A stretch of 64,000 nucleotides of DNA from a phage. Position 1 is the first letter of the stretch, and every line of letters begins with the position of its first letter. Both the position numbers and the translations under genes were made by a program. The DNA is taken from sequence record NC_100371.1, one strand, 5' to 3'. The notes beneath the pieces are model-generated. The model saw only the letters and a list, made by a program, of their open reading frames with translations. It was not told where the DNA came from and made no database searches. Positions 21,996-42,048 of this stretch are shown one piece after another.

Positions 21996-22035
21996 GAGTA
22001 AGTGCTCCTATGTTAGTTTTCTTTTGAATGGGTGC

Positions 22036-22064: not shown

Positions 22065-22077
22065 TACGTTTTTCAGG

Positions 22078-22106
22078 TTGACATCTTCTCAGGCACTTGG
22101 TAAGAT
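22078..22106 (+). promoter_or_regulatory. sigma70-type promoter, rightward (-35 TTGACA, 17-nt spacer, -10 TAAGAT)
   Basis: TTGACA at 22078-22083, 17-nt spacer, TAAGAT at 22101-22106; upstream of the first plus-strand gene. Confidence 0.6.
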
Positions 22107-22138
22107 TTCTCCACCCACAGAGAACAAGAGACAACTCA

Positions 22139-23127
22139 TGAATCTTGAAAAATATTATACACCAGAAGAGTTAGAGCGCTTGCTCAAAAAATACAGACGC
22201 AAACAGAATAACGCACGGAAACGGGATATAGAGTTCAACCTGTCATGGGAAGAATATCTCCTATTTGGTAAAAAACTTTTAGGAGAGGGAGTATGCGACT
22301 ATACCCTTATACCTTTCGACATGCACACAGATGAAAACGGACTGGGAAATCCTTTCTACCCATCTCTAGAGCGGATAGATGATGAAGGTCCTTATGCGGT
22401 TGATAACTGTTGTGTGGTAGGATTGAGATGCAACTCTCTAAAGGACTGTCTGGTAGATAAAAAGACCGCAGTCTTGATTAAAGACAAAACTGATCGAAAA
22501 ATTGTCCAGCAGATGATGCTCCACCTGAGCGAAGAGCGTATGGAGAAATTGAAAGGTGATTACACTTTTGAAGATTTCATCTTGCAATATGGAACGGAAG
22601 AGGATAAACTAGCACTCTTTGACGAAGAATGGGAGGAAGATATGTCACCAATGCAGGATTTTAAAAACTTCATGGCTAATCGTGGAGCCAACAAGCACAT
22701 TTCTGACATTGTAAACGAGCCTGCAGTAGAGGAGATTGAAGAGATGACGCAACAGGCTTACGAAGAGGAAAAAGAGCCTCAAGGGGTCGAAGAAGAGCTT
22801 ACAGAAGAGGTTCCTGCACTGCCTGACGATGTTGAGATTGCCAAAGCTTACACTTTCTATTGCCAGACGTTCTACGATGCAGGTATGAAAGTTGATCTGT
22901 CATTCAGCCAGTTTAAGAGCACATACATTCGAAAATGTTGTGCTTTAACTGGTGAACGTCTCGGTGCCGGACTTAAACCCCTATTAGTTACCGACTGGAA
23001 CAAAGGTTTCACCAAAGGTAACTTCATGGTAGTATCTCCAATCATGGAGAAGGCTATGACAGACCTTATGAAGACCACTCGCATGACAATGACCGAGTTG
23101 GCTGGTATTTTCAAGCACGTTAAATAA
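22139..23127 (+). CDS. hypothetical protein with internal duplication and acidic linker
   Basis: ORF track 22078..23127 starts at a TTG inside the promoter; ATG at 22139 preferred. Two related segments (…SLERIDDEGPYAVDNCCVV… / …LTGERLGAGLKPLLVTDWNKGF…NFMVV…) separated by a Glu-rich region. Confidence 0.5.
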
Positions 23128-23160
23128 TGACAGGGGCCAATGGCCCCTTCTGGAGTTTTA

Positions 23161-24621: not shown

Positions 24622-24636
24622 AGGAGGAGATTATTT

Positions 24637-24900
24637 ATGGCAACAGAGTTAAAATTTGCATCCAACCGTAAAACTAAGAAGTATCTGTCTTCAGTAGCTC
24701 CAGGTACTGTGGTGATGTTTGTTGATGAACTTGGAGATGTGAATACAGCACTTGTTGTGAGATCACATCCTGCAAACATATATGTTGGGGTATTTGACCT
24801 GTTCAGAAAGGTGTTTGCAGAACTACCTCACACCTTGGTTGTTACAGAAATGGATGCCTGCATAGAAATTCTTGGCGAAGTTATGGTGGAGGAACAATAA
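24637..24900 (+). CDS. hypothetical small protein, tandem paralog 1 of 4 (87 aa)
   Basis: AAGGAGGAG RBS; MAT...GTVV...D..G pattern shared with the next three genes. Confidence 0.55.
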   Translation: MATELKFASNRKTKKYLSSVAPGTVVMFVDELGDVNTALVVRSHPANIYVGVFDLFRKVFAELPHTLVVTEMDACIEILGEVMVEEQ

Positions 24901-25163
24901 TGGCTACTAGCATTGTATTCAATTCTAAAGTGAAGAACAAAAAGCGTGCAGACAGTTTTCCATGTGGGACCGTGGTAAGTTGTGACGGAGACGGCATTCA
25001 AAACATAGTTATGATTGTCAAAACAGGGGAACATTGTGTATGGGGGTTCGATTTAGAAAATAATGAGTTGTACGATCTGCCACCAAACATGAAAGTTACA
25101 GAGCTTGACACCAAAATTACCATCCTTGGAGAGACAAGCTATTCAAAAGAAGGAGGAGAATAA
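24900..25163 (+). CDS. hypothetical small protein, tandem paralog 2 of 4 (87 aa)
   Basis: TAATG stop/start overlap; same length and pattern (MATSIVF...CGTVVSCDGDG). Confidence 0.55.
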   Translation: MATSIVFNSKVKNKKRADSFPCGTVVSCDGDGIQNIVMIVKTGEHCVWGFDLENNELYDLPPNMKVTELDTKITILGETSYSKEGGE

Positions 25164-25426
25164 TGACCACGAAAATCACCATTGCAGAACCAAAAGCTAA
25201 CACGCAACCTATCGAAAAGTTTAAATGCGGTGAGGTGGTAACATTTACACCAGATAATGAAGATGCTAAGATTTTTGCCATGGTAACAGCCGAGTGGATG
25301 TGTGACAATACCACACAGGTGCTGCGTTTTGACACCTATCTTACAGATGAAATCAGGAACGACAAGATCGTGACTGGTGTGGATACTGAGATTATTTTCT
25401 ACAAGAGCTTTTTAGAGGGTTTCTGA
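25163..25426 (+). CDS. hypothetical small protein, tandem paralog 3 of 4 (87 aa)
   Basis: TAATG overlap; KFKCGEVVTF pattern. Confidence 0.55.
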   Translation: MTTKITIAEPKANTQPIEKFKCGEVVTFTPDNEDAKIFAMVTAEWMCDNTTQVLRFDTYLTDEIRNDKIVTGVDTEIIFYKSFLEGF

Positions 25427-25427
25427 T

Positions 25428-25661
25428 ATGGCAAAAATTCGTAAATTATCCAGCAATCAGGTTGTGAAAGACTTTGAATCTGGAGAGATCTTGTATGTCC
25501 GTGATGCAGATGATGAATGTGAAGATCTTGTTATGCTGGTAGGGCACGCTGAAGACGGATGCATCCAGGCTGTTTTTCTTGAAACAGCGATGGTGCACTG
25601 GATAGAGCTGGACCTGAAAGCACGAAAACCTAAAGCAGAAATCATTATTTACGAAGATTAA
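25428..25661 (+). CDS. hypothetical small protein, tandem paralog 4 of 4 (77 aa, more divergent)
   Basis: Adjacent, co-oriented; FESGEILYVRDADDECEDLVMLV pattern resembles paralogs 1-3. Confidence 0.5.
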   Translation: MAKIRKLSSNQVVKDFESGEILYVRDADDECEDLVMLVGHAEDGCIQAVFLETAMVHWIELDLKARKPKAEIIIYED

Positions 25662-25677
25662 CAAGAAGGAGAGAGCC

Positions 25678-26127
25678 GTGTTGAGCAAACGTGAATGCGA
25701 CAGCATTAGCCTGAATTCTTATAAGAAACAATGGTTTGGGGTAGAAGTTTGCCGACTACGGCTGGGCTCCTACTTGAACTTCGTCTATTATGAGAGTGAC
25801 AGTCGTATCGTTTCTTATGAAGTGTTCTACACTAAGAATACATTCGAGCTGAGACGTAAGGTGGATGGCGGGAGATCTACCGCCCAGAATAATTGGGAAA
25901 CTATTCTGCCTCCAGATGTTATAGGAAGTCCCCTGAATGTATCTGAAGATGAAAATCTTATGGTTCATGCTATGATGGGACTTGACAGCTTAGAGCTGGC
26001 GATCTATGATATGTCTATCGAAGCAGTTAAGCTGGACTACATCGAAAACACTTTAGAGGAAGGTATCAAGAAGTTTCTCGGTGAGAAATTGAAAGCCCAC
26101 TTTCATAAGGAGCTATATCTGTTATGA
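25678..26127 (+). CDS. hypothetical protein (149 aa)
   Basis: ORF with AAGGAGAG RBS; non-ATG (GTG/TTG) start likely. Confidence 0.45.
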   Translation: MLSKRECDSISLNSYKKQWFGVEVCRLRLGSYLNFVYYESDSRIVSYEVFYTKNTFELRRKVDGGRSTAQNNWETILPPDVIGSPLNVSEDENLMVHAMMGLDSLELAIYDMSIEAVKLDYIENTLEEGIKKFLGEKLKAHFHKELYLL

Positions 26128-26369
26128 AGACCCGTAAAGAACGTAACAAGATTTTACCTGGCGCTCTCGAACACATGATGAAGTGCAGATCTATCTGGCA
26201 CTCTGCCAAGGAGGGGCAGCATGTGGTCGTGGTTAGTGATAATGCCAACCCGTTCGGTGATTATGTCACCATGATGACTCCATACATCCGCGACGGTGTT
26301 GTGGAAGTGGTTCCTTATAGTGGTCTGCATGAGAGGCATTTTGAGAGCACTTTGCTAGTGGAGCTATAA
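26124..26369 (+). CDS. hypothetical protein (81 aa)
   Basis: ATGA overlap with the upstream gene. Confidence 0.45.
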   Translation: MKTRKERNKILPGALEHMMKCRSIWHSAKEGQHVVVVSDNANPFGDYVTMMTPYIRDGVVEVVPYSGLHERHFESTLLVEL

Positions 26370-26371
26370 TT

Positions 26372-26938
26372 ATGGCGGTCAATGTGGCTTACAACACAGG
26401 AAAGCTTGACAGAGACATTGGGTGTCTTGTCCTTTCAGATACAGAGGAGTATTGGGGTTATGGGTTGCTGTCAGACCCACACCCGAGCAACCTTGTATCA
26501 ACAGTGCTATATCGCTACGACCCTGTACCAACGGTGCACGACAAAGATATTCACGACCTTCGGGTCAAGTGTCTGGAAGATCTTCTGAACAATGGCTGCA
26601 ACGATCTGCAGGTAGCCAAGGAGAAGCTTACAAACATCCACAAAGAGGAAGTGATGAGCACCCTCAGTAAGAGGTCAGTGCACAAAAAGATGATGCTGAA
26701 CTTTGCAATGGGTATCTACATGGATGGGTATAAGGGAGGGGATCCGATCCTCAAGCTTCGCTGCCCAACACTGTGGGAAAGAGTGGTTGACAGTAAGGAC
26801 GGTACTGCCCTGCTAGAACTCCACACTGCAGGTTGGATTTGGCGGTATGTAGACGGATACCCTCTGTGGGCATGTGGACCCGGTGAGTTTGTTGACAGAC
26901 CTAGCGCGGTGGTGGATTTGCTATTGCAGTTTGAATAA
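26372..26938 (+). CDS. hypothetical protein (188 aa)
   Basis: Co-oriented ORF, 2-nt spacing from the upstream gene. Confidence 0.5.
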   Translation: MAVNVAYNTGKLDRDIGCLVLSDTEEYWGYGLLSDPHPSNLVSTVLYRYDPVPTVHDKDIHDLRVKCLEDLLNNGCNDLQVAKEKLTNIHKEEVMSTLSKRSVHKKMMLNFAMGIYMDGYKGGDPILKLRCPTLWERVVDSKDGTALLELHTAGWIWRYVDGYPLWACGPGEFVDRPSAVVDLLLQFE

Positions 26939-26994
26939 AAGGTGAGTTATAAAGCATTCATACACCTATCAACAATACAACAAGAGAGACTGAG

Positions 26995-27270
26995 ATGACG
27001 AAAGAAGAAGCTGACGTATTAGACTTTGCACTAGAGGCTACGCAAGAGGCTCTAGTGTTAGCTTGGAAAATGAACCAACGTGCTGCAGAATGCAACCGCC
27101 GAATCAATGAGATCCTGGGTATGTCTATGTATGATTTCACCATGCATGCTGGAGAGATTCCTGAATTAACTGCTGAGATGAATGATCTTGACAATAAAAT
27201 TAATATCATTCTGAAGACAGCAGAAACAACTCACCAAACCGCCCGTAAATTTATCAACGAGAAGGTGTGA
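26995..27270 (+). CDS. hypothetical protein (91 aa), predicted helical
   Basis: Co-oriented ORF. Confidence 0.45.
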   Translation: MTKEEADVLDFALEATQEALVLAWKMNQRAAECNRRINEILGMSMYDFTMHAGEIPELTAEMNDLDNKINIILKTAETTHQTARKFINEKV

Positions 27271-27746
27271 ATATGGACTACAGCTACTGCGGAGAAGAAG
27301 TACCTTTTAACTACAGCAATCTCACCACGAGCAATCCATATGAGACTCGTCACGGCACGCATATCATTGCTATTGACTTTGATGGAACGTTTAATGCGAG
27401 CCCTTTCATCTTCTCCCGCCTTATTAAGGACCTGAAGAAGGAGGGGTGGACAGTCTATCTTGTGACTTTCCGATTCATCACTCAAGACAACGTGGACATC
27501 GAATACTGGCGCAAGGAGCTCGATGTTGGAGTGTTTTATACTGGAGGCGTTCAGAAGGCCGCTTATCTGGCGCAGTTTGATATCTACCCAGACATCTGGG
27601 TTGATGATTCTCCAGCTTGCATTCCGGCTAAGAATCAGTTAGAGTTTGCAATGAAGGAGATTGAGTATAAGTCTGACGCTAAGCGTAACGGATGGCCCTT
27701 TATTATTGAAGATTACCCAGATCCTGAACCGGAGAAAGAACCATGA
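27267..27746 (+). CDS. HAD-superfamily phosphatase (possible nucleotidase)
   Basis: HAD motif I IIAIDFDGT and C-terminal acidic motif IWVDDSP. Confidence 0.6.
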   Translation: MNMDYSYCGEEVPFNYSNLTTSNPYETRHGTHIIAIDFDGTFNASPFIFSRLIKDLKKEGWTVYLVTFRFITQDNVDIEYWRKELDVGVFYTGGVQKAAYLAQFDIYPDIWVDDSPACIPAKNQLEFAMKEIEYKSDAKRNGWPFIIEDYPDPEPEKEP

Positions 27747-27913
27747 AACGAAGATACCATTACGTGATGTGGAAGTTATATCATGGTGCTGCTAAGGCTT
27801 ATCGAGCCGTGTTTGGTAATGACAATCACTGCATTATGTTACACCTTACATCCATTGAGCATCACAATGAGTGGATTCGTGAAATCGTAATAGGTGACAA
27901 AGACTTTAAGTAA
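27743..27913 (+). CDS. hypothetical small protein (56 aa), below the ORF-track length cutoff
   Basis: Manual translation MKRRYHYVMWKLYHGAAKAYRAVFGNDNHCIMLHLTSIEHHNEWIREIVIGDKDFK; ATGA overlap with HAD gene stop; GGAGA RBS ~7 nt upstream. Confidence 0.4.
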   Translation: MKRRYHYVMWKLYHGAAKAYRAVFGNDNHCIMLHLTSIEHHNEWIREIVIGDKDFK

Positions 27914-27943
27914 AGTATGGCTTTCTAGATGGAGACTGACTAA

Positions 27944-28324
27944 ATGTGCAAGTGTAAATCTTATAATTGGAAAGTGAAAGGTGCCAAGCATCCAAATGTT
28001 ATCGTTGATGTGCCTAAAAAGCTCCGTGACGGCAAAAAACGTGTGTGCCTTGATAAGTGCATGGCTAAACCTATCATGAGTCTATGGGCGGCAGGATTGA
28101 AAACTCTAAACTGCTGCTGTGGTCATAACAAAGATGTTCCAAGCATCATTATCCCAGAGGATGCAGACCCTAAAGCTTATGCCAAAATACTGACTCGCTA
28201 CCCCAGCACCTTTCTGATCGGAAAATGGTGTCACGATGAACTTCAATGGTGGATAGCGTACGGTAGTGTAGGTGCTGCTTTTGGCTTCCCAGCTTTGTCA
28301 GAGCGCTACGTCAAATCGTCATAA
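27944..28324 (+). CDS. Cys-rich hypothetical protein (126 aa)
   Basis: Cysteine clusters CKC...C...C and NCCCGH; GGAG RBS. Confidence 0.5.
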   Translation: MCKCKSYNWKVKGAKHPNVIVDVPKKLRDGKKRVCLDKCMAKPIMSLWAAGLKTLNCCCGHNKDVPSIIIPEDADPKAYAKILTRYPSTFLIGKWCHDELQWWIAYGSVGAAFGFPALSERYVKSS

Positions 28325-28428
28325 TCTGTTTTAAGGCCTCAAACGAGGCCTGTGCCTTCATAAACTGCCTACCTCTGTGTGATTACCTCTCTAAATAAAA
28401 TACCCTCTCAAATTGCTTAAAATTAAGC

Positions 28429-28457
28429 TTGACATCAACACCAGATTTATATATGAT
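28429..28457 (+). promoter_or_regulatory. sigma70-type promoter (-35 TTGACA, 17-nt spacer, -10 TATGAT)
   Basis: TTGACA 28429-28434, TATGAT 28452-28457, ~30 nt upstream of ATG 28488; preceded by hairpin AGGCCTC-AAAC-GAGGCCT (28331-28350). Confidence 0.55.
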
Positions 28458-28487
28458 TATCTCATCAACCAAGCAGAGGAGATTGTC

Positions 28488-28895
28488 ATGGATAATCTTG
28501 CAAGTGTGAACGTCGAAATTGTTAAACTAAAGTTCTTGGGCTTTCGAGACCCTAATTCTCTAACAGCTATACTGATGGATACCCACTTCACACCTGGGAA
28601 AGAGTACACTGCCTTCCGTTATATTTGTGGAGATCACGAATCGGCCTATAGTGTGAATACAAACCTCGGCGAGGGGTATTTCATCAAAGATATCACAGAT
28701 CACTTGTGGGGTATGTGGGAATTGGTGGAAGAAGAGAATAAATCCCTTCCCAAAGAGATTTGGGTGCACACCTTCCACACAGGTAAGTTCGGAGGTACGG
28801 AACATAAGTCTATCCACTATGAAGAAGAAAGTGCCATCAAACAACAAGCTGTGCTTGGTGGATCTGTAGAAAAATTTGTTAAATGCGAGGACTGA
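28488..28895 (+). CDS. hypothetical protein (135 aa)
   Basis: ORF track 28413..28895; ATG 28488 preferred (GAGGAG RBS, downstream of promoter). Confidence 0.5.
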   Translation: MDNLASVNVEIVKLKFLGFRDPNSLTAILMDTHFTPGKEYTAFRYICGDHESAYSVNTNLGEGYFIKDITDHLWGMWELVEEENKSLPKEIWVHTFHTGKFGGTEHKSIHYEEESAIKQQAVLGGSVEKFVKCED

Positions 28896-28898
28896 GAA

Positions 28899-29099
28899 AT
28901 GGCTGATTTTTGTAAAGATTGCTCTGAAGAGTTGTTTGGCTTTGACTGCAAAGATTTGGAAGGTCTGATCACTGAGGATCAGTGGAAGGAAGGCTATGCA
29001 GCACCTGTTATTTGTGAAGGTTGTGGCTATACCTATGTTGACCATAAAGGTAAGCGCGTCAAGCCGTCTGAAGATGGGGCATGTTGGGAGTATTACTAA
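28899..29099 (+). CDS. small zinc-ribbon-like Cys-rich protein (66 aa)
   Basis: CKDC ... CEGCG cysteine pairs. Confidence 0.45.
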   Translation: MADFCKDCSEELFGFDCKDLEGLITEDQWKEGYAAPVICEGCGYTYVDHKGKRVKPSEDGACWEYY

Positions 29100-29148: not shown

Positions 29149-32100
29149 TTAAAGAGAGAAAGTCGCGTAGGCTCCCAGACGATACTGCTGGTCACCAGGG
29201 AACATAACACCTATAGAGGCTGTCCCTAGAATCCTGCCTTCCTTTCCAGACTCCATTCTGAACCCTACCCATCCTGAACTCCTTGCAGCCTCGATGTTGT
29301 CGCTATACCCGAAAGTGGCAAGATCGTCAACACCAGCCCCAAACAGCAACTGAAGCTGACTTCTCGGAAGCCCTATAATTTCAGGAATATATGCACCAAA
29401 GTACACCATCTGCCCTACCTTAGGACCGCTGCCGTACTCCATCGGCTTGCTTGTAGCAAAAGTCTTCATACCAGAAGTCCCTGCCGGATTAGGGTATGCC
29501 CCGTTTGTTGCTGTACCTATCCACATTCTCCACTGTGGTGTCATCTGTTTGACAGTAAAAGATGTTGAAGACGTTTTGCGACCTGCATCATCAGTAGCTA
29601 CAAACTTTATAGTGACATTACCAGGAGCTTTAAATGTTACCAGCCCTGTGGTAGCATACACTGTTGCAATGTTGGTATTACTGCTTTCCCAAGTCTTTCT
29701 AATCCCAGACACATTGGAAGGGGTAATAGAAGGTTCCTGCATCTGCAGTTTACCACCCACAATCCCTATGCCGTTACCTGGGTTATACAACGCACCAACT
29801 TCATCTATAATGTTACCTGCCTTGAGACTGTACTTCCTTGAGAAGTTGTAAGTTCCGTTATAAGCGTGTGTCCCTGAGAAGGTGACATCTGCTTTTCCGT
29901 AAGAGATGCAAACCAAAGCATACTTCCTGTCAGGCAACGTTTCTCCAGTCTCTGGGTGAGTTTTACCTACCTGGAACACACTCGGGTCAGTGGAGTCGTG
30001 GCTATCACTAACGGAGCTTGGACCACCCATCAGTTGTGACAAGCAATTCCTTACCCATGTCCAGTTATTGTCACTGGAGAAGTCTACGGTCAAATCAAAC
30101 ACAACCCACTCATTTGGCTTCCACACAGGTGTTGTGATCAACTTACCAACACCCCCACCCTGAAGAGTAGGAGATTGTTCAGTGATCAGGGCAGAGTATG
30201 CCAGAGTGCCCAACTGCATAGTCTGGCTTGCTGTCCTCACTACCTTAGAATCAGCATCTGTGAAGTTGTTGATGATCTGGAATGTGCCATAAGTGTTTTT
30301 ACAGGTAATTCTGGCGTTCAGTGTGTCAATCTTCCTCACATCTGCCATAGCAGTGTTAGACACAGAGAAGTCAGAAGCTTTAGCTGAGTTTGCCGCAACA
30401 GCAGGATCAACGTTAAGAGTTGCGTTGAACTGACAAGCAGGGGTAACCAGCAGCTTGTTATCACCTATTTGCTTCCATGAAACACTTTGAACAGGGAGAT
30501 TCCATTTAATACCTGAGAAAACTTTAGCAACCCTTGGTCCCAGGGCTCCAGTCCTGTTGTCTTTACAGCACATGGACATGGTGATCGTTGACGGAGTTGC
30601 CTGACCAAACAATTGCTGTGCTTTTGCAGAGGACATAGTGTAGAAATTGTCCTTAACAAACTCATCAGCCGCTAACGATCCGTCAGATCTCCACCATTGT
30701 ACCTGGTATCCTGTCTTATCCCAGCCACCAACCTGCTTCAAGTCCTCCCAAGAGATTTCCAGATCCCCAGTGGTAGGGTTGATTGCCGCAGTTCCTGGTG
30801 TTCCAGATGACCATATTGGGATATCGAACCACGCTGGTTTAACAGACTGCACTGCGTTAGGTCCTATTGCAGCAGCAAGTTGTTGACCCATCAATACGCG
30901 AGCATCTTTCACCAGGCCCCACTCAATCATAGATCCAGAGTAACCCTCTTTCTTATATGCAGAGGACCCGTTCAAATGGATGAGCCTGCTGCAGTCGAAG
31001 CCATACGCTCCACCACCATTAGGGTCTGCGAAGTTAGTTATGATTCTATCCCTAATATTTTTCCATGCCCTACCCCCAATCTCGTAGTCATGGTCATAAC
31101 ATCTTTGCAGCGTTGTCCAGCAAATGATTGCCATTCTTCTGCCACCTGTAAACCCGAAAGCGCCGTCATTCAACTCTTTCCACAGGTAGCAGTTAGTTGT
31201 CCACATAGCTCTGTGAATGTTGAACCAGTTTATGGACTTGGCTGAGTTATCCCACTGAGTCCCAGGTAATTCAGGCCACACTGCATTAACCAGCATGTCT
31301 TCTGTTCCTGCATCAACCAAGAACCCTCTTACCTTTTTACCCATGCCTACCCTGTCTTTTGCAATCCAACTGCCAAACAATCTCAGTTTTGGACCGTAAA
31401 CAACATCTTCCGGATGCTCAAAAGAGACATACTTTAAGTAGATTGTTGGGTCACCGTAGGTGCCATCACAAACACTTTTGTGCATGTTTTCGCCAAGATC
31501 TAGACGAAGCCCTGTCACCACTTTAGACGTGTCAGTGAATTTGTCTGTTAAATCAAATTCATACCACCACCATCCACCACCAAGCATAAATTTCTTGCAT
31601 CGAGTATTGTCTGTATCAGATATTCTCTTATCCCCTGCAAAAGGTGAATCAGCAAACTGATAATGCAGAGCAGTCTCGAATAGATGTGTTGAGGTTCCGT
31701 TTTCTGCAAGAACTTGCTTACCTATTAAGTCGCACTTAATGATCATCACAACACGTTTGTACCCGTTTGTTACTGGAACTTGCATAGATATGGATGTTCC
31801 GTCCATGTTCGATCTTAGTGCTGTCATGATGATATATGGGTCAACAGCGTTGCCTAAAGTTTCAGGCCCTGGGATTATCTTGTACTTCTTAACCTGCCCC
31901 ATGAACCTGTCACTGGCGTAAGTTGCAGCCTCAAAGCAAGATCCTCCATTAGGCAGTTCGCCAGGACCCCAGAAAAATGCGCCATAACAGTTATAAAACC
32001 ACTTGTTAGGGTCGTATTTGTTCTTGAAGGTCTGAACCTCGTTAGCCTGTTTTGTCAAGAAAACCTGCGTATCTGTAAAGATTGCAGGATTTACTCTCGC

Positions 32101-32883
32101 CTGACGTTGAGGGTACCCTGTCGATTGGTTAAACCACTGATTACAAGAGTAATCTCTCATATAGTCATAATCAGAGTATTTGTTTGCATCTTCGTTCCAA
32201 CACATATTTAGGTTGGTACCGCCCATGCACACAATGTATTCTGCGATATACTTATCGCTTCTGGTAGGAATACCTATGAACCATCTATTAACAGGCTCAT
32301 CCCAAGCTGTGCGCTCATCTTTAACGCAGATAGCAATCCAGTCATGTGTTCCTGTTTTCTTGCATACATCTCGCTTCATACCGTAGTAGAACTCTTTAGT
32401 ATTCGGCTCAGGTGCATTTATCAGGTAACTCCATGCCTGATTTGCATAAGTTCCATTGGTTCGCGGGTCATGATCAAAGGCATACATGATGATCCTTTCC
32501 CCACCAAGATGTTCGCCAAGAGTAACTTTGACATTCACATCGCCGTAACCATTGCGAACAACATCCATATTATCAATAGAGATGCCCCTAGGGGTGTAGG
32601 CAATTTTCAGAGAGCTATCTTCACTGGTGCCTCCAAGTGTAATCCCTATGTTGTTTGTTGTCCCGTCGGCATATCTTACTGTGGCTTCCCAGCGTATTCC
32701 GAAATATCCTGCATCATGGCTGACAATTTTCAGTGTACGAGCACCTGGGTGAGGTTTTCCAGGATCAGGCCAAGGGTCTGGGTGTTCGTGGACAGTCAAC
32801 GACGTTCCGTTTTGCTCGTTAACCTGCAACATTTTACCGCCTCTGCCGTTAGGGTTGAACTCCCATACGGCCTGTGTCTGCAC
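29149..32883 (-). CDS. large virion-associated protein with C-terminal Big_2-like Ig domain (putative distal fibre/adhesin)
   Basis: 1244 aa; last gene of the tail operon. Ig-like Big_2-type segment (ITPSNVSGIRKTWESSNTNIATVYATTGLVTFKAPGNVTIKFVATDDAGRKTSSTSFTV). Confidence 0.55.
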   Translation of the reverse strand: MQTQAVWEFNPNGRGGKMLQVNEQNGTSLTVHEHPDPWPDPGKPHPGARTLKIVSHDAGYFGIRWEATVRYADGTTNNIGITLGGTSEDSSLKIAYTPRGISIDNMDVVRNGYGDVNVKVTLGEHLGGERIIMYAFDHDPRTNGTYANQAWSYLINAPEPNTKEFYYGMKRDVCKKTGTHDWIAICVKDERTAWDEPVNRWFIGIPTRSDKYIAEYIVCMGGTNLNMCWNEDANKYSDYDYMRDYSCNQWFNQSTGYPQRQARVNPAIFTDTQVFLTKQANEVQTFKNKYDPNKWFYNCYGAFFWGPGELPNGGSCFEAATYASDRFMGQVKKYKIIPGPETLGNAVDPYIIMTALRSNMDGTSISMQVPVTNGYKRVVMIIKCDLIGKQVLAENGTSTHLFETALHYQFADSPFAGDKRISDTDNTRCKKFMLGGGWWWYEFDLTDKFTDTSKVVTGLRLDLGENMHKSVCDGTYGDPTIYLKYVSFEHPEDVVYGPKLRLFGSWIAKDRVGMGKKVRGFLVDAGTEDMLVNAVWPELPGTQWDNSAKSINWFNIHRAMWTTNCYLWKELNDGAFGFTGGRRMAIICWTTLQRCYDHDYEIGGRAWKNIRDRIITNFADPNGGGAYGFDCSRLIHLNGSSAYKKEGYSGSMIEWGLVKDARVLMGQQLAAAIGPNAVQSVKPAWFDIPIWSSGTPGTAAINPTTGDLEISWEDLKQVGGWDKTGYQVQWWRSDGSLAADEFVKDNFYTMSSAKAQQLFGQATPSTITMSMCCKDNRTGALGPRVAKVFSGIKWNLPVQSVSWKQIGDNKLLVTPACQFNATLNVDPAVAANSAKASDFSVSNTAMADVRKIDTLNARITCKNTYGTFQIINNFTDADSKVVRTASQTMQLGTLAYSALITEQSPTLQGGGVGKLITTPVWKPNEWVVFDLTVDFSSDNNWTWVRNCLSQLMGGPSSVSDSHDSTDPSVFQVGKTHPETGETLPDRKYALVCISYGKADVTFSGTHAYNGTYNFSRKYSLKAGNIIDEVGALYNPGNGIGIVGGKLQMQEPSITPSNVSGIRKTWESSNTNIATVYATTGLVTFKAPGNVTIKFVATDDAGRKTSSTSFTVKQMTPQWRMWIGTATNGAYPNPAGTSGMKTFATSKPMEYGSGPKVGQMVYFGAYIPEIIGLPRSQLQLLFGAGVDDLATFGYSDNIEAARSSGWVGFRMESGKEGRILGTASIGVMFPGDQQYRLGAYATFSL

Positions 32884-32934: not shown

Positions 32935-34785
32935 CTAGGTGACTGATCCAGCATCCATTCTGTGGAGTCGGACCATATACGATGTATCTCCTTCTACCGC
33001 AGGCTGAGTCCCATTCAGCCCGAAGTATACAGTATCGTTAACATGGAACTGCTTGTTTCTACCAACGGTATGCCACTTACCGTCAGAAGGATACGCAGGA
33101 ACTATGGTGTTCCAGTTCAAAGTCCTTGTCGTGTGAGTTCTTCCTGTGCCATGTTTGTCATGATAGGTTATTTTTACAGAGTACAGGCCACGTCTGTTAA
33201 CATTCCTGTTATACTGAGTAACAACAACTTCGTTGGCCCCGCCGTGGTTCCAGTTGGTGGAGAATTGGTAATTTGCATCTGTAACAACCGTACCCGCAGC
33301 ATTTACCAGTTCAATCTTGTCAATAATGAACGTAGCCCCCTCTGGCTGAGGCTTCAATTTCATCTTGACCGTGTCACCAATGTAAATATTGCTAACACTG
33401 CTAACACCGTTAACGTCAAAAATATCATCAACACCCCAACTGTCTACTGGGACATTTTTATACCAATTCTCAGGAACCTCTGTGAACCCCTGACTATTAA
33501 GTCTTCCGCCAAACAGGTTGTTAGAGCCTGCAAAACTTCCCCTTGGGATGCCTGACCACCAAAGTTTACCATTAACAACAGTAAAGGTACCTAAAAAACC
33601 TTCTCTGTGAATGCCCTGGAAATAAACACTCTCTGTCCAGCTAACTGGGAGGCGTTGCTCAACGTATTTGGCTGTGGCAAGAGCTTGATAGTGGATAAAA
33701 TTGGCCCTAGGGTTATTGTTTGCAGATTGTGCGCCAATATCATTACATAAGTTGCGAGAGAATCCGCGATACTGCTTAGTGCCATTATTGAAGAAAATGC
33801 CACTTGTTCCGTACCCACGAGCCATTATTACTTCATGGGTGTAGGTAATATTTAAGGAACGCCATGTATCATCTCCCCAGACATCTTGCCCGTAGAATAC
33901 GTTAACAAGCTGCTGATCATTAGGCTTGTGCATCCTCTGCGTTGCAATTATCGCCCCGTTCGGACCACACATGAATCCTTTCCACTCCTCATCTGCAGGA
34001 ATGCCTTTCAAATCGTTGCGAGTAATCTGAGCAGGGGGCCAAACAAGGTCGTTTCTACTGTTGTTTCTCAGAAAGTCGTATCCAGCAATCCAAAAACCTC
34101 TGGGCCCACCGAAAATAACAGAGTTGTCATGCACCTCGCAGTTGATACTTGGGTTTTTCCAAGGGCCTGTTTCAGGATTTTCCGATGTTTCACCAATCTT
34201 TACAGGGGTTGCATGCTGGTTCTTATCTACATGTAAAGATCCGTAGGTGTTGTTACCAGACCCGTACAGGTGTAAAATGCCGTCACCCTCAGCCTCTGCC
34301 ATAACCCAAACAGTGTTGTTAATACCGCCCATTACCTCGATAAGGCGCTCTGGGTGGGTGTCAAGGTGCAATCCTTGAACAATCTGTTCCGGAAGAGGTG
34401 TCCACTCGTTTACGCAAACATCGTTACCACCTGCCGCAGTGGATCCGATAAGACCTGCAGTGCAGCCGATGTAGAAAAACTGGTTATCAAAAGTCCGGAT
34501 CACAAACGCACGGTCTGCTCTCCACACATGATCAACATTCCAGGCCGTCTCGCTCGGGTAGTTTATAGGGTTACGATCCCCAGTGCGACACTCCCCGAAC
34601 TTGTTATAGCCAGTAATATTAAGCTGACCATCGTCAAAAAGTATAGCTAAGCTATTTACATAAGCTACTGTAGTGCTTGTACCGTCACTGTTGTCTATTG
34701 GGTATGACAGAACAGCAAGTTCCTTAACTCCACCCCTCTTATCGAGGAAATGACGACCAAGTTTTAGCAAAGGGATTGGAAGCAT
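32935..34785 (-). CDS. putative tail fibre / receptor-binding protein
   Basis: 616 aa, Gly/Asn-rich beta-type sequence; located in fibre cluster. Confidence 0.45.
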   Translation of the reverse strand: MLPIPLLKLGRHFLDKRGGVKELAVLSYPIDNSDGTSTTVAYVNSLAILFDDGQLNITGYNKFGECRTGDRNPINYPSETAWNVDHVWRADRAFVIRTFDNQFFYIGCTAGLIGSTAAGGNDVCVNEWTPLPEQIVQGLHLDTHPERLIEVMGGINNTVWVMAEAEGDGILHLYGSGNNTYGSLHVDKNQHATPVKIGETSENPETGPWKNPSINCEVHDNSVIFGGPRGFWIAGYDFLRNNSRNDLVWPPAQITRNDLKGIPADEEWKGFMCGPNGAIIATQRMHKPNDQQLVNVFYGQDVWGDDTWRSLNITYTHEVIMARGYGTSGIFFNNGTKQYRGFSRNLCNDIGAQSANNNPRANFIHYQALATAKYVEQRLPVSWTESVYFQGIHREGFLGTFTVVNGKLWWSGIPRGSFAGSNNLFGGRLNSQGFTEVPENWYKNVPVDSWGVDDIFDVNGVSSVSNIYIGDTVKMKLKPQPEGATFIIDKIELVNAAGTVVTDANYQFSTNWNHGGANEVVVTQYNRNVNRRGLYSVKITYHDKHGTGRTHTTRTLNWNTIVPAYPSDGKWHTVGRNKQFHVNDTVYFGLNGTQPAVEGDTSYMVRLHRMDAGSVT

Positions 34786-36588: not shown

Positions 36589-36780
36589 TTAAGCTTTTTG
36601 CTCTTCGTTTTTAACGTGGTCAGGGTGCTGGCAACCCCACCGGAGCGAGATGAATTTGCTAATAAGCTGGGGGCAGGCTACTGAAGGTGCGTATATCCAC
36701 GCATACCATTCAGGAAGCGTATCATTGTACCCCATATGAATAAACACCCCAGTCATCACTGCCATGCCTATGTAGACCAT
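36589..36780 (-). CDS. questionable small ORF (63 aa) with hydrophobic N-terminus
   Basis: Only ORF in a 284-bp gap; no convincing RBS. Confidence 0.2.
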   Translation of the reverse strand: MVYIGMAVMTGVFIHMGYNDTLPEWYAWIYAPSVACPQLISKFISLRWGCQHPDHVKNEEQKA

Positions 36781-36863
36781 AGCTTAGATTGGGACACTTT
36801 CGTAGGGTCATCCGATGCCGCAACCAACCCCCATAAAAACTGAGTTAATTTCATTTACCCTCT

Positions 36864-37907
36864 TTAAGCATAAGATATAGTGATCCATTGACCGTTTACA
36901 AATTTTTGAATGGCACCAGTCCAATAGTCGCCTTGATACGGGTGTTTATAGGCGTAATTGCCGGAGCACATTACATGCCCAGGGTATACTCTTGATTCTC
37001 TGTAGGTGGTTCTGAAACGGTTTGCTATCCTTACATCTTCAACACCCCTACTAGGCATAGGAATAGTAAGGTTACCACTGCTATCTGCGCTACTACCATT
37101 TACCCTGCGGACCACGTTTCTCCCACCAACTGTTGCATATTGACCCCTGGCGGTGTTATCGTTACAATCCACTCTTCCACCTATTTGAGCGCTGCCGCAG
37201 GATTGTTGTCCATTAACAGTGGCTCTTGGTATCGTTACCGCATTAGCATTTGCAGAGGAGCTTTTTGCATCATTGCATTCAAGATTCCCTTGGATAGCCA
37301 GTCTTGCACGGTTGGCAGTTATAGCATTAAGCTTCATAGCCGAAAACACAGGCTGCCCACCAGAAGGTTGAAATCTCCAACGGAAACCGTCTATTTGGTG
37401 AGAAGGATCATCAAGGTCTGTGCCGTCAGCGCCGCCGATGTTGTCCATAATCCAGAAATCCATCATCGTTTTGTCTGGAGTTATGGTGGTGTATATCGCT
37501 GCATTGTCTGTTGACGCGGATGCAAACTCGATTCTTTGAAGACCCAAAGTTTGAGTCTGGGTCATTGTGTCTCCAGTCTTGTCAACATACAGGTCATCCA
37601 TTTCTTCAGGCGAGTATACATTGAGGACTTTACGTGCAGCAGCTTTGTCTGGAACGTCTGCCAGATTATTAGTGACCCTTAAGAATCTATTATCCCATCC
37701 AGGGACAACATCTTCTGTTAAATGCTTTAGCCACGCAGAGAGCATGTGGAGTTCAAAGTTAACAACTTCACATGCTATCCTTTGTGTCATATCCCAACCT
37801 TTCAATCTCTCTTCTTTGTTCGGTTGAGACTTGTTCAACTCTCCTGTATTTTCAAGCACAACATCCTGATTGGCCCAAATATCGAGAGGGATAACTGGTT
37901 TAGTCAT
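36864..37907 (-). CDS. tail fibre protein, P2 gpH-like C-terminus (paralog 2)
   Basis: Paralog of 38923..39963 at both ends (MTKPVIPLDIW ... QKFVNGQWITISYA); C-terminus resembles the gpH-family tip. ATG 37907 with AGGAGA RBS (ORF-track GTG at 37910). Confidence 0.6.
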   Translation of the reverse strand: MTKPVIPLDIWANQDVVLENTGELNKSQPNKEERLKGWDMTQRIACEVVNFELHMLSAWLKHLTEDVVPGWDNRFLRVTNNLADVPDKAAARKVLNVYSPEEMDDLYVDKTGDTMTQTQTLGLQRIEFASASTDNAAIYTTITPDKTMMDFWIMDNIGGADGTDLDDPSHQIDGFRWRFQPSGGQPVFSAMKLNAITANRARLAIQGNLECNDAKSSSANANAVTIPRATVNGQQSCGSAQIGGRVDCNDNTARGQYATVGGRNVVRRVNGSSADSSGNLTIPMPSRGVEDVRIANRFRTTYRESRVYPGHVMCSGNYAYKHPYQGDYWTGAIQKFVNGQWITISYA

Positions 37908-37926
37908 CACATTCTCCTGAGAAAAT

Positions 37927-37989
37927 TCCTTAAGGACTATTTTAACACTTTAGAGAACAAAATGCAAGAACGGCATCCTTACCGTTCTT
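37927..37989 (-). promoter_or_regulatory. terminator hairpin followed by extended -10 promoter-like motif
   Basis: Minus strand: hairpin AAGAACGG-N8-CCGTTCTT (37966-37989) then TTGCAT-N17-TGT-TAAAAT (-10 at 37939-37944) upstream of fibre gene start 37907. Confidence 0.4.
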
Positions 37990-37997
37990 ACCTTTGT

Positions 37998-38312
37998 TTA
38001 CCTTTTACTATGCTCTACAAGCATGTGCAAAATCTTTTGTACATCAGCTCGGATACCGGAGACATCTGTCCTGACATCTTGCTTAAGGTCGTTAATATCG
38101 GCCTCTAGCTTACTTAACCGGGTCTCGATAATGGAATCAAGTCTATCTTTTGTAACCATGCTATTTTTCACTAAAATGAGGTCTTTCTCCAGCTCATCCA
38201 ACCTCTTGGAAATGCCTTTCCATTTGGTGTGCCACTGGTTGAAAGCCCATACACAGATCGGGACAACGGTACCCATGCAGATACCGTACAATGCCGCCAA
38301 ATCCAACTCCAC
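37998..38312 (-). CDS. membrane-anchored coiled-coil protein (104 aa)
   Basis: N-terminal hydrophobic segment LAALYGICMGTVVPICVWAF followed by charged helical region. Confidence 0.45.
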   Translation of the reverse strand: MELDLAALYGICMGTVVPICVWAFNQWHTKWKGISKRLDELEKDLILVKNSMVTKDRLDSIIETRLSKLEADINDLKQDVRTDVSGIRADVQKILHMLVEHSKR

Positions 38313-38323
38313 AACACCTCCTC

Positions 38324-38908
38324 TTAGAGGGTAGGTCGTTCCGGGAAGAAAATGTCAGGGGCTTTAGATGTATCTATTTCAAGAAGTTTTACCCTGTACA
38401 TTTTCAAATCTCTGATGTTGCGTTTTTGGTCATCAGTAAGATCGTATTCAAGGTCAATCATGTCTTGATAGGCACCAATTCTAGCAGTAGCCCAAGCAAG
38501 TTCTGTCTCTATGACACCCTCTGCCTGTTGAACAAAGAATTCATTGTCTGTGACAAATTCATCACCAACTAAACGCAAAGCGTCGTGGTGGAGCATAATG
38601 TTTTCTGGTACCTCTTCTTTTTTGGCGATAACCACACGAAGACCTGGAGCAGGCCACAAGGCATCAGGTTCTTCTGTAGATGTCTTAAGAATACCCTTCT
38701 CGTCAACAAGTAAGAAGATACAGCCGGGATTTTCTTGTCGCAGTGTTCGTGATTGCACATACCAATCGCCATCATCATTACGTAAAAAATATCCAGTGTA
38801 TGCTGTGTAATCCTCAACCTCCTGAGGAGTCAGCTCCTTGGTCTCCTTGTTGGTGTAGTATTCGCCAGATCCCGGTTGGTAAAGTTTAAACTCTTGAAGT
38901 ATTTTCAT
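38324..38908 (-). CDS. tail fibre assembly protein (Tfa / P2 gpG-like chaperone)
   Basis: 194 aa immediately downstream of a fibre gene; C-terminal region DQKRNIRDLKMYRVKLLEIDTSKAPDIFFPERP matches the conserved Tfa C-terminal pattern. Confidence 0.7.
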   Translation of the reverse strand: MKILQEFKLYQPGSGEYYTNKETKELTPQEVEDYTAYTGYFLRNDDGDWYVQSRTLRQENPGCIFLLVDEKGILKTSTEEPDALWPAPGLRVVIAKKEEVPENIMLHHDALRLVGDEFVTDNEFFVQQAEGVIETELAWATARIGAYQDMIDLEYDLTDDQKRNIRDLKMYRVKLLEIDTSKAPDIFFPERPTL

Positions 38909-38922
38909 GCTAGTCCTCCGAT

Positions 38923-39963
38923 CTACGCATAATTAACAGTGATCCATTGACCATTTACAAGTTTTTGTAAAGGTCCTGCCCAGTAGGTTGAACCACGCAT
39001 CTCTTTTTTATCACCAAAATGCCAACCTGTGACAACGTAGCCGTTGCGAACTGGAGATTCAGAAACACCATCAACAAGTCTTGCACCGATTCTGATATCC
39101 TGTACCCCTGTCTGCGGGATGGTGATCGTTACATCTCCGTTACCGTTAGCCGTCACTCCATTCACAGAGCGCACCACATTTCTGTTACCGACAACACAAT
39201 GCTGGCTTCTTACAACCATACTGTCACAACTTGCACCGCCATTAACATATACGGACCCAGCGGTCAACTGACTAGCCACATTACAGTTGGTGAATGTTGC
39301 TGTGCTGCTGATGGTAAGGTTGTTACACCGCATGTTATCGACAACTTCAACATTACCTACCACTTTCAACAGCGCACGGTTAGCCGTGATCGCGTTCAGG
39401 TACATCAAAGTGAACTCTGGATTAATGTCTGGCTGAGTTGGCTGGAATCTCCAACGAAACGCATCTACTGTAGATGTGCCACCATCATCAAACGCCCCAG
39501 TGTTATCACTTAACCCAAAGTCGAGAGTTGTCTTATCTGGACCAATAGTTGTCTCTATCCAAGCCTTATCTGTCTCGGCAGCTTTAAAGTTGATACGCTG
39601 CAAACCTAAGGGGCCTGTCATTGTATCGCCTGTAACTTTTACATACCTGGCGTCTGCCTCTTCCTTAGTGATAATCCCAAGGTTTCTACGGGCAACAGGA
39701 ATGTTCAAAAGATCGCTCAGGTTATTATCACGTACCAGATAACGGCCCTCTTGGGCAGGGATCTGCTCGTCAGCAATATATTTTGCCCAAGTCCCGAGCA
39801 TATTGAAAATATAGTTAAGTTCTTCACATGACGGCTTTTGACCAAGATCCCAACCTTTTCTCCACAAATCATCAATCGGGCGTAGCCTGTTCTGTCTGTG
39901 GGTGTTAGGCAGAACCTGATCCTCCTCTGCCCAAATCTCTAATGGAAAACTAGGTTTTGACAT
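38923..39963 (-). CDS. tail fibre protein, P2 gpH-like C-terminus (paralog 1)
   Basis: 346 aa; N-terminus MSKPSFPLEIW and C-terminus LQKLVNGQWITVNYA shared with 36864..37907. Confidence 0.6.
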   Translation of the reverse strand: MSKPSFPLEIWAEEDQVLPNTHRQNRLRPIDDLWRKGWDLGQKPSCEELNYIFNMLGTWAKYIADEQIPAQEGRYLVRDNNLSDLLNIPVARRNLGIITKEEADARYVKVTGDTMTGPLGLQRINFKAAETDKAWIETTIGPDKTTLDFGLSDNTGAFDDGGTSTVDAFRWRFQPTQPDINPEFTLMYLNAITANRALLKVVGNVEVVDNMRCNNLTISSTATFTNCNVASQLTAGSVYVNGGASCDSMVVRSQHCVVGNRNVVRSVNGVTANGNGDVTITIPQTGVQDIRIGARLVDGVSESPVRNGYVVTGWHFGDKKEMRGSTYWAGPLQKLVNGQWITVNYA

Positions 39964-39975
39964 TTTATCTCCTGA

Positions 39976-42048
39976 TTATGAGAAGTCTGGCGGAACAACA
40001 TCTTCTACATACCCTTTCAGAGCAACCTGCCCCATATGCAGAACAGTAGAATCTCTGGCGGTAACAGTGATGCTGTCAGACATTACTTGCGGGTATGCCC
40101 ACACATACTGTTTTACCTCAGGGTATCTATACTCTATGGTTGCCATGTTTCCGCAAATACATCTCCATAAAAATTCTTGGTAATTCCTGGTTGGGTCGTA
40201 GCCATATACCGGAGCAAGCTCTTTGCTAGGAACGAACCCTGCAAGGTATTGTATTTCAGACGGTTTCCAACCTAACTTAACGATAGGTATGTTTACAGAC
40301 TCTTTTGCCTTTTCAATACCTCCCTGCATCACCCAATCGTAGCACTCAGTGCAGAAGAAATCAAGAGCACCTGCTTCCTTTTTATATTGGTCAGCAAGGT
40401 TCAGTTTTTGCGTAAGCTCGGTTTCCATAATAGTGGGGAAAAACAGTAAAGCTGTCATCTGAGCCGATGCAGCGTGTGCTTTTATTGCCTTTGAAATGGC
40501 TGCAATACGAGCGCCAAGCTTACCACGACAAAATGCTACATACTTGTCATAAACACCGCCAGTTTTAGGATCGTCAATAGTCCCAATGTCTAGTGCATAT
40601 TCACCAGTCTCATCATAAAACGCCTGCTTTGTAGGGTAGTCATAAATACAAGGCTTACGAGTATCGGTATTGAACCACCACCACGGTTCACCAATCTGCA
40701 TAATCACTGGCAGGTTGTTTCTCATAGCGGCTGATGCAAAATTCTTAAATACTGCAGTAAGGAAATTCATGCCCTCTTCAATGGTTGGAGACAGGAGGTA
40801 ACTACAAGGCGTATAGCCTGTTTTAGCATAGTTATCGTTCCAGTCTCTCTGGGTCCATTCCAACGGACAGGCATCGCTATAAAGCTCAAAGCTTACAGAC
40901 TGCATAACGTCGAAGTCATGTCGTTTGGCATTGTACATAAAATCATCATGCCATTTATAAGCTGCAGCGTTTAGAGCTCCTGTTTTGTTTATAGACCATT
41001 GGGTTCCTGACCATGTGTAGTCATAATAATGGCTCATACCAACATAATGGTTTATGGTTCCTGTATAGCCCAGACGCTTGATATTGCTCAACACCCTTAA
41101 AGGGGATACGTTCCACATATCGTCATATGCTGTGCAGATCCCAACATCGTGTTCTTTCACCTGAATATTGTTAAGTTGCATCATTTTCCAGCCTGTGTCC
41201 GGCTGAAGAAGATCTAGACGCAACTCACACTCTACATTTTCCGTTCTCGGGTCTGTGCTATTACCTACCCAATCTTTAGGCATAAGTGGTATTAGAATCC
41301 TTCTCACCTGCCGAGGATCAACACCCATCATGTTGTTGTTCTGGTCCATCCCGACGCAGTCCTCGAAATCAATATGAATTTCTGCAACATTCTTATCCTC
41401 TGAGATGCTGACAGCATATTGAGCTAAAGGAACATAGATGATTGTACCATCAACAAGGTCTACAGTCATAATCATCTTTTCAGGGGTGGAGAAGTTGCTG
41501 GCATTGGTTATTGACATTCTGAACCAAAGCTTGGTGTTTCTCATCTCGTAGTGATCATCAAATCCAATGCCGAAATGGTCATACTTGTCAACTGTTTCCC
41601 AAATGCACCCAGCCATGCCCCCATATGTTCTTGACACTAAACGGTTAATACAGCAGTTATTATCCGCAACAATACAGGTGCTTTCAGTCTGCTGTGTGGT
41701 TGTAACCCAGTATCTTGGGTGAAACATTCTCTCCTCAACTGTATCCCAAGATATTCTGTCAAGATTCTCATCTGAAACTATTGTACATTTCGCTCTTTGT
41801 GTTCCAATCATAACCCCTTGGGAGTTTGATGAAAACTCCATAAAGAAGCTCCTTGGCAACCTGTTTGGCAATTTGTCAACAATTTCTACAGGGATCTCGA
41901 TACTGGTTGCCCCAACCGGGATAGTTACATCGCCCTCAACATGATCATAATCCCTACCCGGAACTGCAGTATCCTGAACTGTGCGGTAATGAAACCGTGC
42001 AGCCATTGTAGAGTAATCACGGTAAGGTTTAAAAACAGCTGTTGCCAT
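39976..42048 (-). CDS. baseplate-associated structural protein (possible fibre or glycan-binding/hydrolase)
   Basis: 690 aa; follows gpI-like gene; N-terminal Calx-beta-like segment (RDYDHVEGDVTIPVGATSIEIPVEIVD). Confidence 0.4.
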   Translation of the reverse strand: MATAVFKPYRDYSTMAARFHYRTVQDTAVPGRDYDHVEGDVTIPVGATSIEIPVEIVDKLPNRLPRSFFMEFSSNSQGVMIGTQRAKCTIVSDENLDRISWDTVEERMFHPRYWVTTTQQTESTCIVADNNCCINRLVSRTYGGMAGCIWETVDKYDHFGIGFDDHYEMRNTKLWFRMSITNASNFSTPEKMIMTVDLVDGTIIYVPLAQYAVSISEDKNVAEIHIDFEDCVGMDQNNNMMGVDPRQVRRILIPLMPKDWVGNSTDPRTENVECELRLDLLQPDTGWKMMQLNNIQVKEHDVGICTAYDDMWNVSPLRVLSNIKRLGYTGTINHYVGMSHYYDYTWSGTQWSINKTGALNAAAYKWHDDFMYNAKRHDFDVMQSVSFELYSDACPLEWTQRDWNDNYAKTGYTPCSYLLSPTIEEGMNFLTAVFKNFASAAMRNNLPVIMQIGEPWWWFNTDTRKPCIYDYPTKQAFYDETGEYALDIGTIDDPKTGGVYDKYVAFCRGKLGARIAAISKAIKAHAASAQMTALLFFPTIMETELTQKLNLADQYKKEAGALDFFCTECYDWVMQGGIEKAKESVNIPIVKLGWKPSEIQYLAGFVPSKELAPVYGYDPTRNYQEFLWRCICGNMATIEYRYPEVKQYVWAYPQVMSDSITVTARDSTVLHMGQVALKGYVEDVVPPDFS

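Follow-up and report, generated by a model that had tools for sequence, protein, structure and literature searches.

Why does a phage keep two similar tail-fibre genes, in the same orientation, with only a single tail-fibre chaperone gene beside them? The question is raised by a stretch of phage DNA of 64,000 nucleotides (sequence record NC_100371.1), referred to below as the window, in which a preliminary description made from the letters had pointed out two fibre genes, with a Tfa-like chaperone gene adjoining the upstream one. We call the fibre next to the chaperone A and the other fibre B; the coordinates are collected in Table 1. The four open reading frames lie exactly where the description had placed them, every one on the minus strand, and its order of an upstream fibre copy (A) followed by Tfa is correct when read on that strand.

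We consider it likely that this is a short-tail-fibre locus in which two old paralogs, most likely forming two homotrimeric fibres, share one Tfa chaperone. The source phage is a Vequintavirus, an rV5/FV3-like E. coli myophage. The arrangement of two fibres and a chaperone is an already known, genus-wide trait of rV5-like phages, because it was described by Kropinski 2013 (PMC3606486) and Maffei 2021 (PMC8594841); publications of 2013 and 2021 already cover the paralogs, the chaperone and the promoter that precedes the second copy, and the window is one more isolate. What is new here is the genus-wide copy number, the purifying selection on both fibres, the assignment of A as the ancestral copy and the finding that B occupies the slot of a 157-aa gene. 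The basis of this work is homology, synteny, copy number, purifying selection, and promoter and hairpin motifs; virion incorporation and dependence on the lipopolysaccharide (LPS) core are taken from the literature. Phages of the rV5 type are among the commonest E. coli phage isolates, are used in O157 typing and are considered for therapy, and matching each fibre to its terminal receptor matters for host-range prediction and engineering.

Two paralogous fibres and one chaperone

The two fibres are full-length homologues. BLASTP aligns A and B end to end with 153 of 356 positions identical (43%, E=8e-95), and each matches phrog_4465 'tail fiber protein' along the whole profile (residues 1-342 of 342; E=4.5e-171 for A and 1.8e-163 for B). 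A is 99-100% identical to the copies in FV3 and EduardKellenberger, which are annotated as tail fibre and short tail fibre. Searches of Pfam and NCBIfam gave no family for either fibre, and no Pfam fibre-repeat family was matched. The two are true paralogs, as the preliminary description had supposed. Its picture of similar termini and a divergent middle is too simple: identity is 50% over the first 30 residues of A and 44% over the last ~25, but the highest similarity of all regions is central (64-67% at A ~101-150), with dips at residues 31-100 (27-37%) and ~205-247 (16-33%, the lowest of all). Within the tip, identity falls to 27-29% at A 293-324. The C-terminal ends are near-identical, ...QK(L/F)VNGQWIT(V/I)(N/S)YA, and the strings that the description quoted for them are correct.

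At the DNA level, similarity between the two genes is recognisable only in 63 nucleotides at their 3' ends (76%). The duplication is therefore old, given 43% amino-acid identity without DNA-level tracts. Since only these 63 nucleotides are alike, there is no sign of recent gene conversion, and conversion between A and B was rejected as an explanation of their likeness. The term "duplicated host-range cassette", which the preliminary description had used, is thus overstated: only the fibre gene is doubled, the duplication is old and fixed in the genus, and the copies are conserved rather than variable.

In rV5, gp30 (347 aa) and the similar-sized gp33 are 42.3% identical, and mass spectrometry of the virion proteome detected gp30, gp32 and gp33 (Kropinski 2013, PMC3606486). 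The same study obtained HHpred probabilities of 98.4% and 97.7% for the similarity of the two fibres to a T4 gp12 structure and suggested that the phage may recognise two LPS chemotypes. For the Vequintavirinae sensu stricto, Maffei 2021 (BASEL, PMC8594841) described a pair of paralogous short tail fibres plus a chaperone and found no considerable allelic variation in the paralogs. The authors linked the pair to the locus with a single fibre in phi92-like phages and, further back, to Mu GpS/GpU. They also showed genetically, for the group, that Vequintavirinae require the LPS core (waaC and waaG dependence).

The rV5, FV3 and BASEL Vequintavirinae loci have the same order, the same sizes (346/347-aa fibres, 194-aa Tfa, 104-aa protein), the same sequence and the same putative late promoter P030 before B. 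Nothing substantive differs; the window adds a frameshift in a small gene and an amber codon in an immunoglobulin-like (Ig-like) fibre gene. In particular, gene order and annotations in FV3 and EduardKellenberger are the same as in the window, and the locus proteins are 96-100% identical to theirs. The annotations in FV3 read "similar to rV5" tail fibre, tail fibre assembly protein and tail fibre; those in EduardKellenberger (BASEL) are "short tail fiber protein" for both fibres, with "tail fiber chaperone" between them.

The chaperone matches PF02413 Caudo_TAP with 45.5 bits (cut-off 22.1) over its conserved C-terminal domain (residues 121-192) and phrog_136 with E=1e-36. Its BLASTP match to Mu U' is weak (E=4e-4), and a sequence search of the PDB returned chance-level matches only, none of them to Mu Tfa. 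The gene starts 15 nucleotides past the stop codon of A. B is without an adjoining chaperone; the gene 3' of it is a small membrane-protein gene. A tblastn search with Tfa found 246 places in 244 records, that is, one per Vequintavirus genome, and no second Tfa was found elsewhere in the genome by tblastn of Vequintavirus records. The single Tfa adjoining the upstream copy, as first described for the window, is thus confirmed. In Tfa proteins the variable N-terminal domain binds the fibre tip and the conserved C-terminal domain trimerises; Mu Tfa remains on the fibre (PMC9608196).

Whether relatives carry one copy or both, a point raised in the preliminary description, can be answered from the distribution: Vequintavirus genomes have both fibres and one Tfa, and sister genera have one copy. 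By tblastn, A finds two places per record in ~115 Vequintavirus records at identities of at least 95%. It finds one place in Seunavirus (SSE121, GAP31), in TH18 and in phi92-like phages, and also one in Klebsiella, Cronobacter and Erwinia relatives. B is present at identities of at least 90% in 116 phage records, and A is present in every one of them. Among 50,697 phage records, no protein from outside Vequintavirus resembles B more than A does; the best of these outside matches have 35-44% identity to B, and where identity exceeds 40% the alignment spans only 60% of B. With B as the query, a search of 5.8 billion proteins gave six clusters, all of them Vequintavirus-type or 39-41% identical. 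One of the six is 78% identical to B and comes from contigs with ~75% nucleotide identity to the window; these divergent contigs keep the whole layout, with amino-acid identities of 88% for A and 77.5% for B (93% and 88% in the tips).

As a separate observation, ~17-21 GenBank records (MG065xxx) labelled 'Campylobacter phage', host Campylobacter jejuni, are ~94% identical to the locus in the window and carry both paralogs; their Campylobacter host labels look doubtful.

Domain anatomy and expression signals

The N-terminal ~85-110 residues of the fibres are homologous to the docking domain of the short tail fibre of phage phiTE (PDB 9cuy_c). Residues 1-111 of 9cuy_c match A 1-108 with E=1.5e-19, the match to B 2-83 has E=2.4e-08, B being the more diverged copy, and the family profile matches with E=1.5e-29. 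In the cryo-electron microscopy structure of phiTE, short-tail-fibre residues 3-92 form the joint that fixes the trimer to the wedge 1 protein (PMC11972413). However, the likeness to this fibre (Certrevirus, Vequintavirinae; PDB 9cuy/9mjn) is confined largely to the homologous N-terminal ~90-110 residues. Unlike A and B, the phiTE fibre is 554 aa long and includes a coiled coil and distal domains of the Ig-like type; beyond the docking domain it gives only a faint C-terminal match. The phage is flagellotropic and has a single such fibre.

The C-terminal 60-85 residues, in turn, are homologous to P2 H 587-669 (hhalign 96.5%, E=7e-10) and to Mu S 437-503 (96.4%, E=1e-9). By BLASTP, identity is 28% to P2 H (over 64 aa) and 36% to Mu S (over 61 aa), and phmmer matches A to the Mu S structure 5yvq_A with E=1.4e-06; B alone gives marginal BLASTP matches to Mu S and P2 H (E=0.014-0.047). 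The tip module common to A, B, Mu S and P2 H reads ...V.D.RLG...GH.(I/M)TG...P(I/V)QK.(I/V)NG.W... Outside the tip, BLASTP finds no significant alignment to P2 H and, for A, a single weak match to Mu S (E=0.001), located around 'NLSD..AR.NLG'. In forced alignments, the first 65 residues are 8-20% identical to those of Mu S and P2 H. The fibres are half the length of gpH: unlike Mu S (504 aa) and P2 H (669 aa), A and B have 346-347 aa, and their N-terminus and shaft are unrelated to those of the Mu and P2 fibres. The preliminary label "P2 gpH-like" therefore applies to the last 60-85 residues, for which Mu S is an equally good reference, and not to the N-terminus and shaft. Judged by these homologies, the accurate label is that of a predicted Vequintavirinae short tail fibre with a Mu-S/P2-H-type tip.

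As in Mu S/U and P2 gpH/gpG, a fibre with this tip (here A) is directly followed by a Tfa-family chaperone gene. In Mu, S/U and S'/U' alternate by DNA inversion, whereas the window has two complete genes in the same orientation and one chaperone gene. An invertible switch of the Mu G type was rejected, because both genes are on the same strand and no inverted repeats of at least 16 nucleotides are present in 36500-40100.

The 87-nucleotide gap before B contains, in this order, a hairpin, the motif TGTTAAAATA and a Shine-Dalgarno sequence, after which comes the ATG of B. The hairpin lies directly 3' of the gene for the 104-aa protein and has a folding energy of -23.7 kcal/mol (z=-5.9), with 0 of 200 shuffled sequences as stable. 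The motif agrees with the late motif of rV5, TGGTAAAATA, in 9 of its 10 positions. With at most one mismatch allowed, the window has 14 occurrences of TGGTAAAATA where 5.5 would be expected; 12 of the 14 fall on the minus strand, on which most of the window genes lie. Table S4 of the rV5 study lists a putative late promoter P030, TTGTTCTCTAAAGTGTTAAAATAGTCCTAAGGAATTT, before gene 30 (Kropinski 2013, PMC3606486); the gap before B in the window has the same sequence save one extra T. The hairpin, TGTTAAAATA, the Shine-Dalgarno sequence and the B start codon are conserved in four phages (the window, ECP32, FV3 and EduardKellenberger). Both elements of the terminator-promoter junction that the preliminary description had placed before B are thus present as conserved sequence motifs. 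Its suggestion that the second copy may be expressed independently is supported at this level only, by a hairpin followed by a predicted late promoter.

Origin and roles of the two copies

A occupies the position of the single short tail fibre, directly before Tfa, in TH18, SSE121, GAP31 and phi92-like phages. Its whole-protein identity to the TH18, SSE121 and GAP31 fibres is 47-50%, against 39-44% for B, and over the first 65 residues the values are 58-65% and 45-46%. Over the last 60 residues, A is 57-58% and B 33-40% identical to the fibres of SSE121 and JohannJBalmer. The JohannJBalmer fibre is 29% identical to A and 24% to B over the whole protein, and 38% and 35% at the N-terminus. Because A has the position of the single fibre of these relatives and is closer to them than B is, A is, on synteny and identity, the ancestral copy and B the derived one.

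The Seunavirus phages SSE121 and GAP31, TH18 and the phi92-like Justusliebigvirus phages share the order of short tail fibre, Tfa and a small hydrophobic/coiled-coil-like protein. As in the window, their loci lie between baseplate genes and a large fibre gene, and their fibres are 24-50% identical to A and B. Unlike the window, they have one fibre gene, and TH18, SSE121 and GAP31 have a 157-aa gene at the position of B. The full order in these three phages is short tail fibre, Tfa, 104-aa homologue, 157-aa polytopic membrane protein, 88-aa membrane protein and large fibre. In Vequintavirus, B sits exactly in the slot of the 157-aa membrane-protein gene, which belongs to phrog_7451 (compared loci L003 7020-7493, L004 5997-6470 and L006 5961-6434 versus window 36864..37997). 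No homologue of the 157-aa membrane protein was found in the window.

Both fibres are under strong purifying selection, with ratios of nonsynonymous to synonymous substitution rates (dN/dS) of 0.005-0.033 for A and about 0.05 for B. That B is a pseudogene was rejected on this ratio and on its retention in the lineage with ~75% nucleotide identity. At the protein level B evolves about twice as fast as A: divergence to the contig L011 of that lineage is 22.5% for B and 12% for A. The tip of B is better conserved than the rest of the protein (88% versus 77.5% identity to the divergent lineage).

We propose that A and B would each form a short fibre, presumably a homotrimer, and that both would be present in the virion. 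Each fibre would have an N-terminal domain docking on a baseplate wedge protein, a shaft and a small receptor-binding tip of the Mu S/P2 H type. The single Tfa probably folds and trimerises the tips of both, because there is no second Tfa and the tips have the same length and a near-identical C-terminal end. A would most likely bind the conserved LPS outer-core glucose described for the group. B would have arisen by duplication in the Vequintavirus lineage, landing in place of the 157-aa membrane-protein gene; it would have acquired or kept its own late promoter, and its docking domain and tip would have diverged. Because these two regions diverged, the most likely contribution of B is a second specificity for the LPS core, another attachment position on the baseplate, or both, possibly with a distinct receptor.

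Several points weigh against this proposal. The rV5 virion and LPS-core data are assigned to neither paralog individually, and according to Maffei 2021 (PMC8594841) the little allelic variation points to one common terminal receptor, so that two specificities are not required. The tip of B is only 43% identical to that of A, which counts against Tfa acting on B. The promoter activity before B is predicted at the motif level only, and the hairpin is without a counterpart among the terminators predicted for rV5 (PMC3606486). In addition, hhalign gives a probability of only 0.08% for T4 gp12. Since this compares a shallow profile of 8 sequences with a single gp12 sequence, it does not overturn the published HHpred result. 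Finally, an AlphaFold2 monomer of B, built from an alignment of 8 rows, has a mean predicted local distance difference test score (pLDDT) of 33 and a predicted template modelling score (pTM) of 0.21 and is unusable; such a poor result is expected because a trimeric fibre was modelled as a monomer from a shallow alignment.

A more specific version is that B is neofunctionalised, docking elsewhere on the baseplate and binding a different LPS-core chemotype with the help of the same, then bispecific, Tfa. We regard it as a tentative possibility. It fits the drift of the B docking domain away from the subfamily consensus, which goes far beyond that of A, the distinct yet 88%-conserved tip, and the displacement of a gene conserved in sister genera together with an own promoter. 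If true, recognition of two core types would go some way towards explaining why rV5-like phages have a broad host range in E. coli.

Exchange of tail-fibre genes among phages is common, and B might instead have come by horizontal transfer from a relative that has not been sampled, replacing the 157-aa gene. For example, A is closer to the single short tail fibre of SSE121 (50%) than to B (about 44%), and B stands at a different position, with a promoter to itself and in place of a gene that relatives possess. However, outside Vequintavirus neither the phage records nor the 5.8-billion-protein search hold a B-like protein closer than A. Furthermore, A and B both lack a shaft insert of ~30 residues found in TH18, SSE121 and GAP31 and have the common ...VNGQWIT..YA end, and their identity at residues 101-150 is at least as high as that of either to TH18 or SSE121 there. 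These features make an import unlikely and favour duplication within the Vequintavirus lineage.

It is still less probable that A and B co-assemble as heterotrimers, giving one mixed short fibre rather than two. Their nearly equal lengths with few gaps, the strongly conserved stretch at A 101-150, the near-identical C-terminal ends and the single chaperone encoded between them would suit such an assembly. On the other hand, overall identity is only 43%, with differences in both the docking domain (27-50% over A 1-100) and the tip; a separate promoter is predicted for B; and the related fibres of solved structure, Mu S (PDB 5yvq) and the short tail fibre of phiTE, are homotrimers. Least credible of all is that B is a redundant or decaying duplicate without separate function: the lack of allelic variation with one common LPS-core dependence (BASEL, PMC8594841) and the faster evolution of B would agree with it, but the low dN/dS, the intact gene in about 116 genomes, its retention with a well-conserved tip in the divergent lineage and the detection of its orthologue gp30 in rV5 virions speak against it.

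Layout of the locus and other features of the window

All locus genes are on the minus strand, transcribed in the order of 690-aa fibre, A, Tfa, 104-aa protein, the 87-nucleotide gap and B; a small membrane-protein gene and a 581-aa fibre gene follow. The locus is flanked by baseplate and NGR-fibre genes on one side and by the 581-aa fibre gene on the other. This position is kept in FV3, EduardKellenberger and ECP32 as well as in three metagenomic contigs. Over the 11.4 kb around the locus, nucleotide identity is 98.5% to EI-SP-GF, 98.2% to ECP32 and 95.6% to FV3, and 110 phage records cover at least 80% of it.

Table 1. Features of the short-tail-fibre locus, in order of transcription (positions in the window)
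Feature	Position	Strand	Match or orthologue
690-aa fibre, N4-gp65-like NCTSP/TIM-barrel domains	42048..39976	-	PF23845, E=7e-80
Short tail fibre paralog A, 346 aa	39963..38923	-	Orthologue of rV5 gp33 / FV3_00033
Tfa-family chaperone, 194 aa	38908..38324	-	PF02413, phrog_136; orthologue of rV5 gp32
104-aa protein	38312..37998	-	phrog_5345, E=1e-48; orthologue of rV5 gp31
Terminator-like hairpin	37991..37964	-	Pattern scan and RNA fold
Late-promoter-like motif TGTTAAAATA	37947..37938	-	Equivalent of rV5 putative late promoter P030
Short tail fibre paralog B, 347 aa from ATG	37907..36864	-	Orthologue of rV5 gp30 / FV3_00030
Small membrane-protein gene, frameshifted in the window	36589..36854	-	phrog_1322; orthologue of rV5 gp29 / FV3_00029

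In the 104-aa protein, a hydrophobic segment at the N-terminus is followed by a charged, coiled-coil-like remainder; homologues with 32-33% identity stand at the same position in TH18, SSE121 and GAP31. At this position the phi92-like phage JohannJBalmer encodes a 113-aa protein (L005 5555-5896) that has no tblastn match to the window. It has a weak match to Rz-like spanins (phrog_739, E=5e-4) and also matches 'lipoprotein' PHROGs, which is very weak evidence but may hint at a lysis- or envelope-related role of proteins of the 104-aa type. In the single-fibre relatives, three small membrane proteins (the 104-aa type, the 157-aa and the 88-aa protein) are embedded in the fibre cluster.

The 88-aa membrane-protein gene 3' of B (phrog_1322) is frameshifted in the window by a deletion of one nucleotide relative to FV3, ECP32 and EduardKellenberger. 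At ~36775 on the minus strand the window reads GGTC-TAC, where ECP32 and FV3 have GGTCAAAC, and the 88-aa protein of FV3 matches the window in two reading frames.

Further downstream, the metagenomic contigs of the divergent lineage (L011, L012 and L013) keep the two-fibre locus and differ beyond it (L011 9124-13044): L011 has genes for proteins of 475, 183 and 1209 aa, and L012 has a single 1876-aa Ig-like fibre. This difference suggests that the large lateral fibres are where variation is concentrated, in agreement with BASEL.

In the window, the gene for the large Ig-like lateral tail fibre, the orthologue of rV5 gp27, is broken by a TAG codon at 32935..32937 on the minus strand. The protein has ~1877 aa in ECP32, FV3 and EduardKellenberger; the window has open reading frames of 616 aa (34785..32935) and then, in frame, of 1244 aa (32883..29149). 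At the position of the TAG, ECP32 and FV3 have TAT and EduardKellenberger has TAC. Either this host-range fibre carries a genuine amber mutation, or the codon is a sequencing error.

At ~22000..29000, unlike in the rest of the window, GC skew and AT skew change sign, and a block of plus-strand genes lies there between two minus-strand blocks. This fits the description of rV5, whose transcription units are divergent and convergent.

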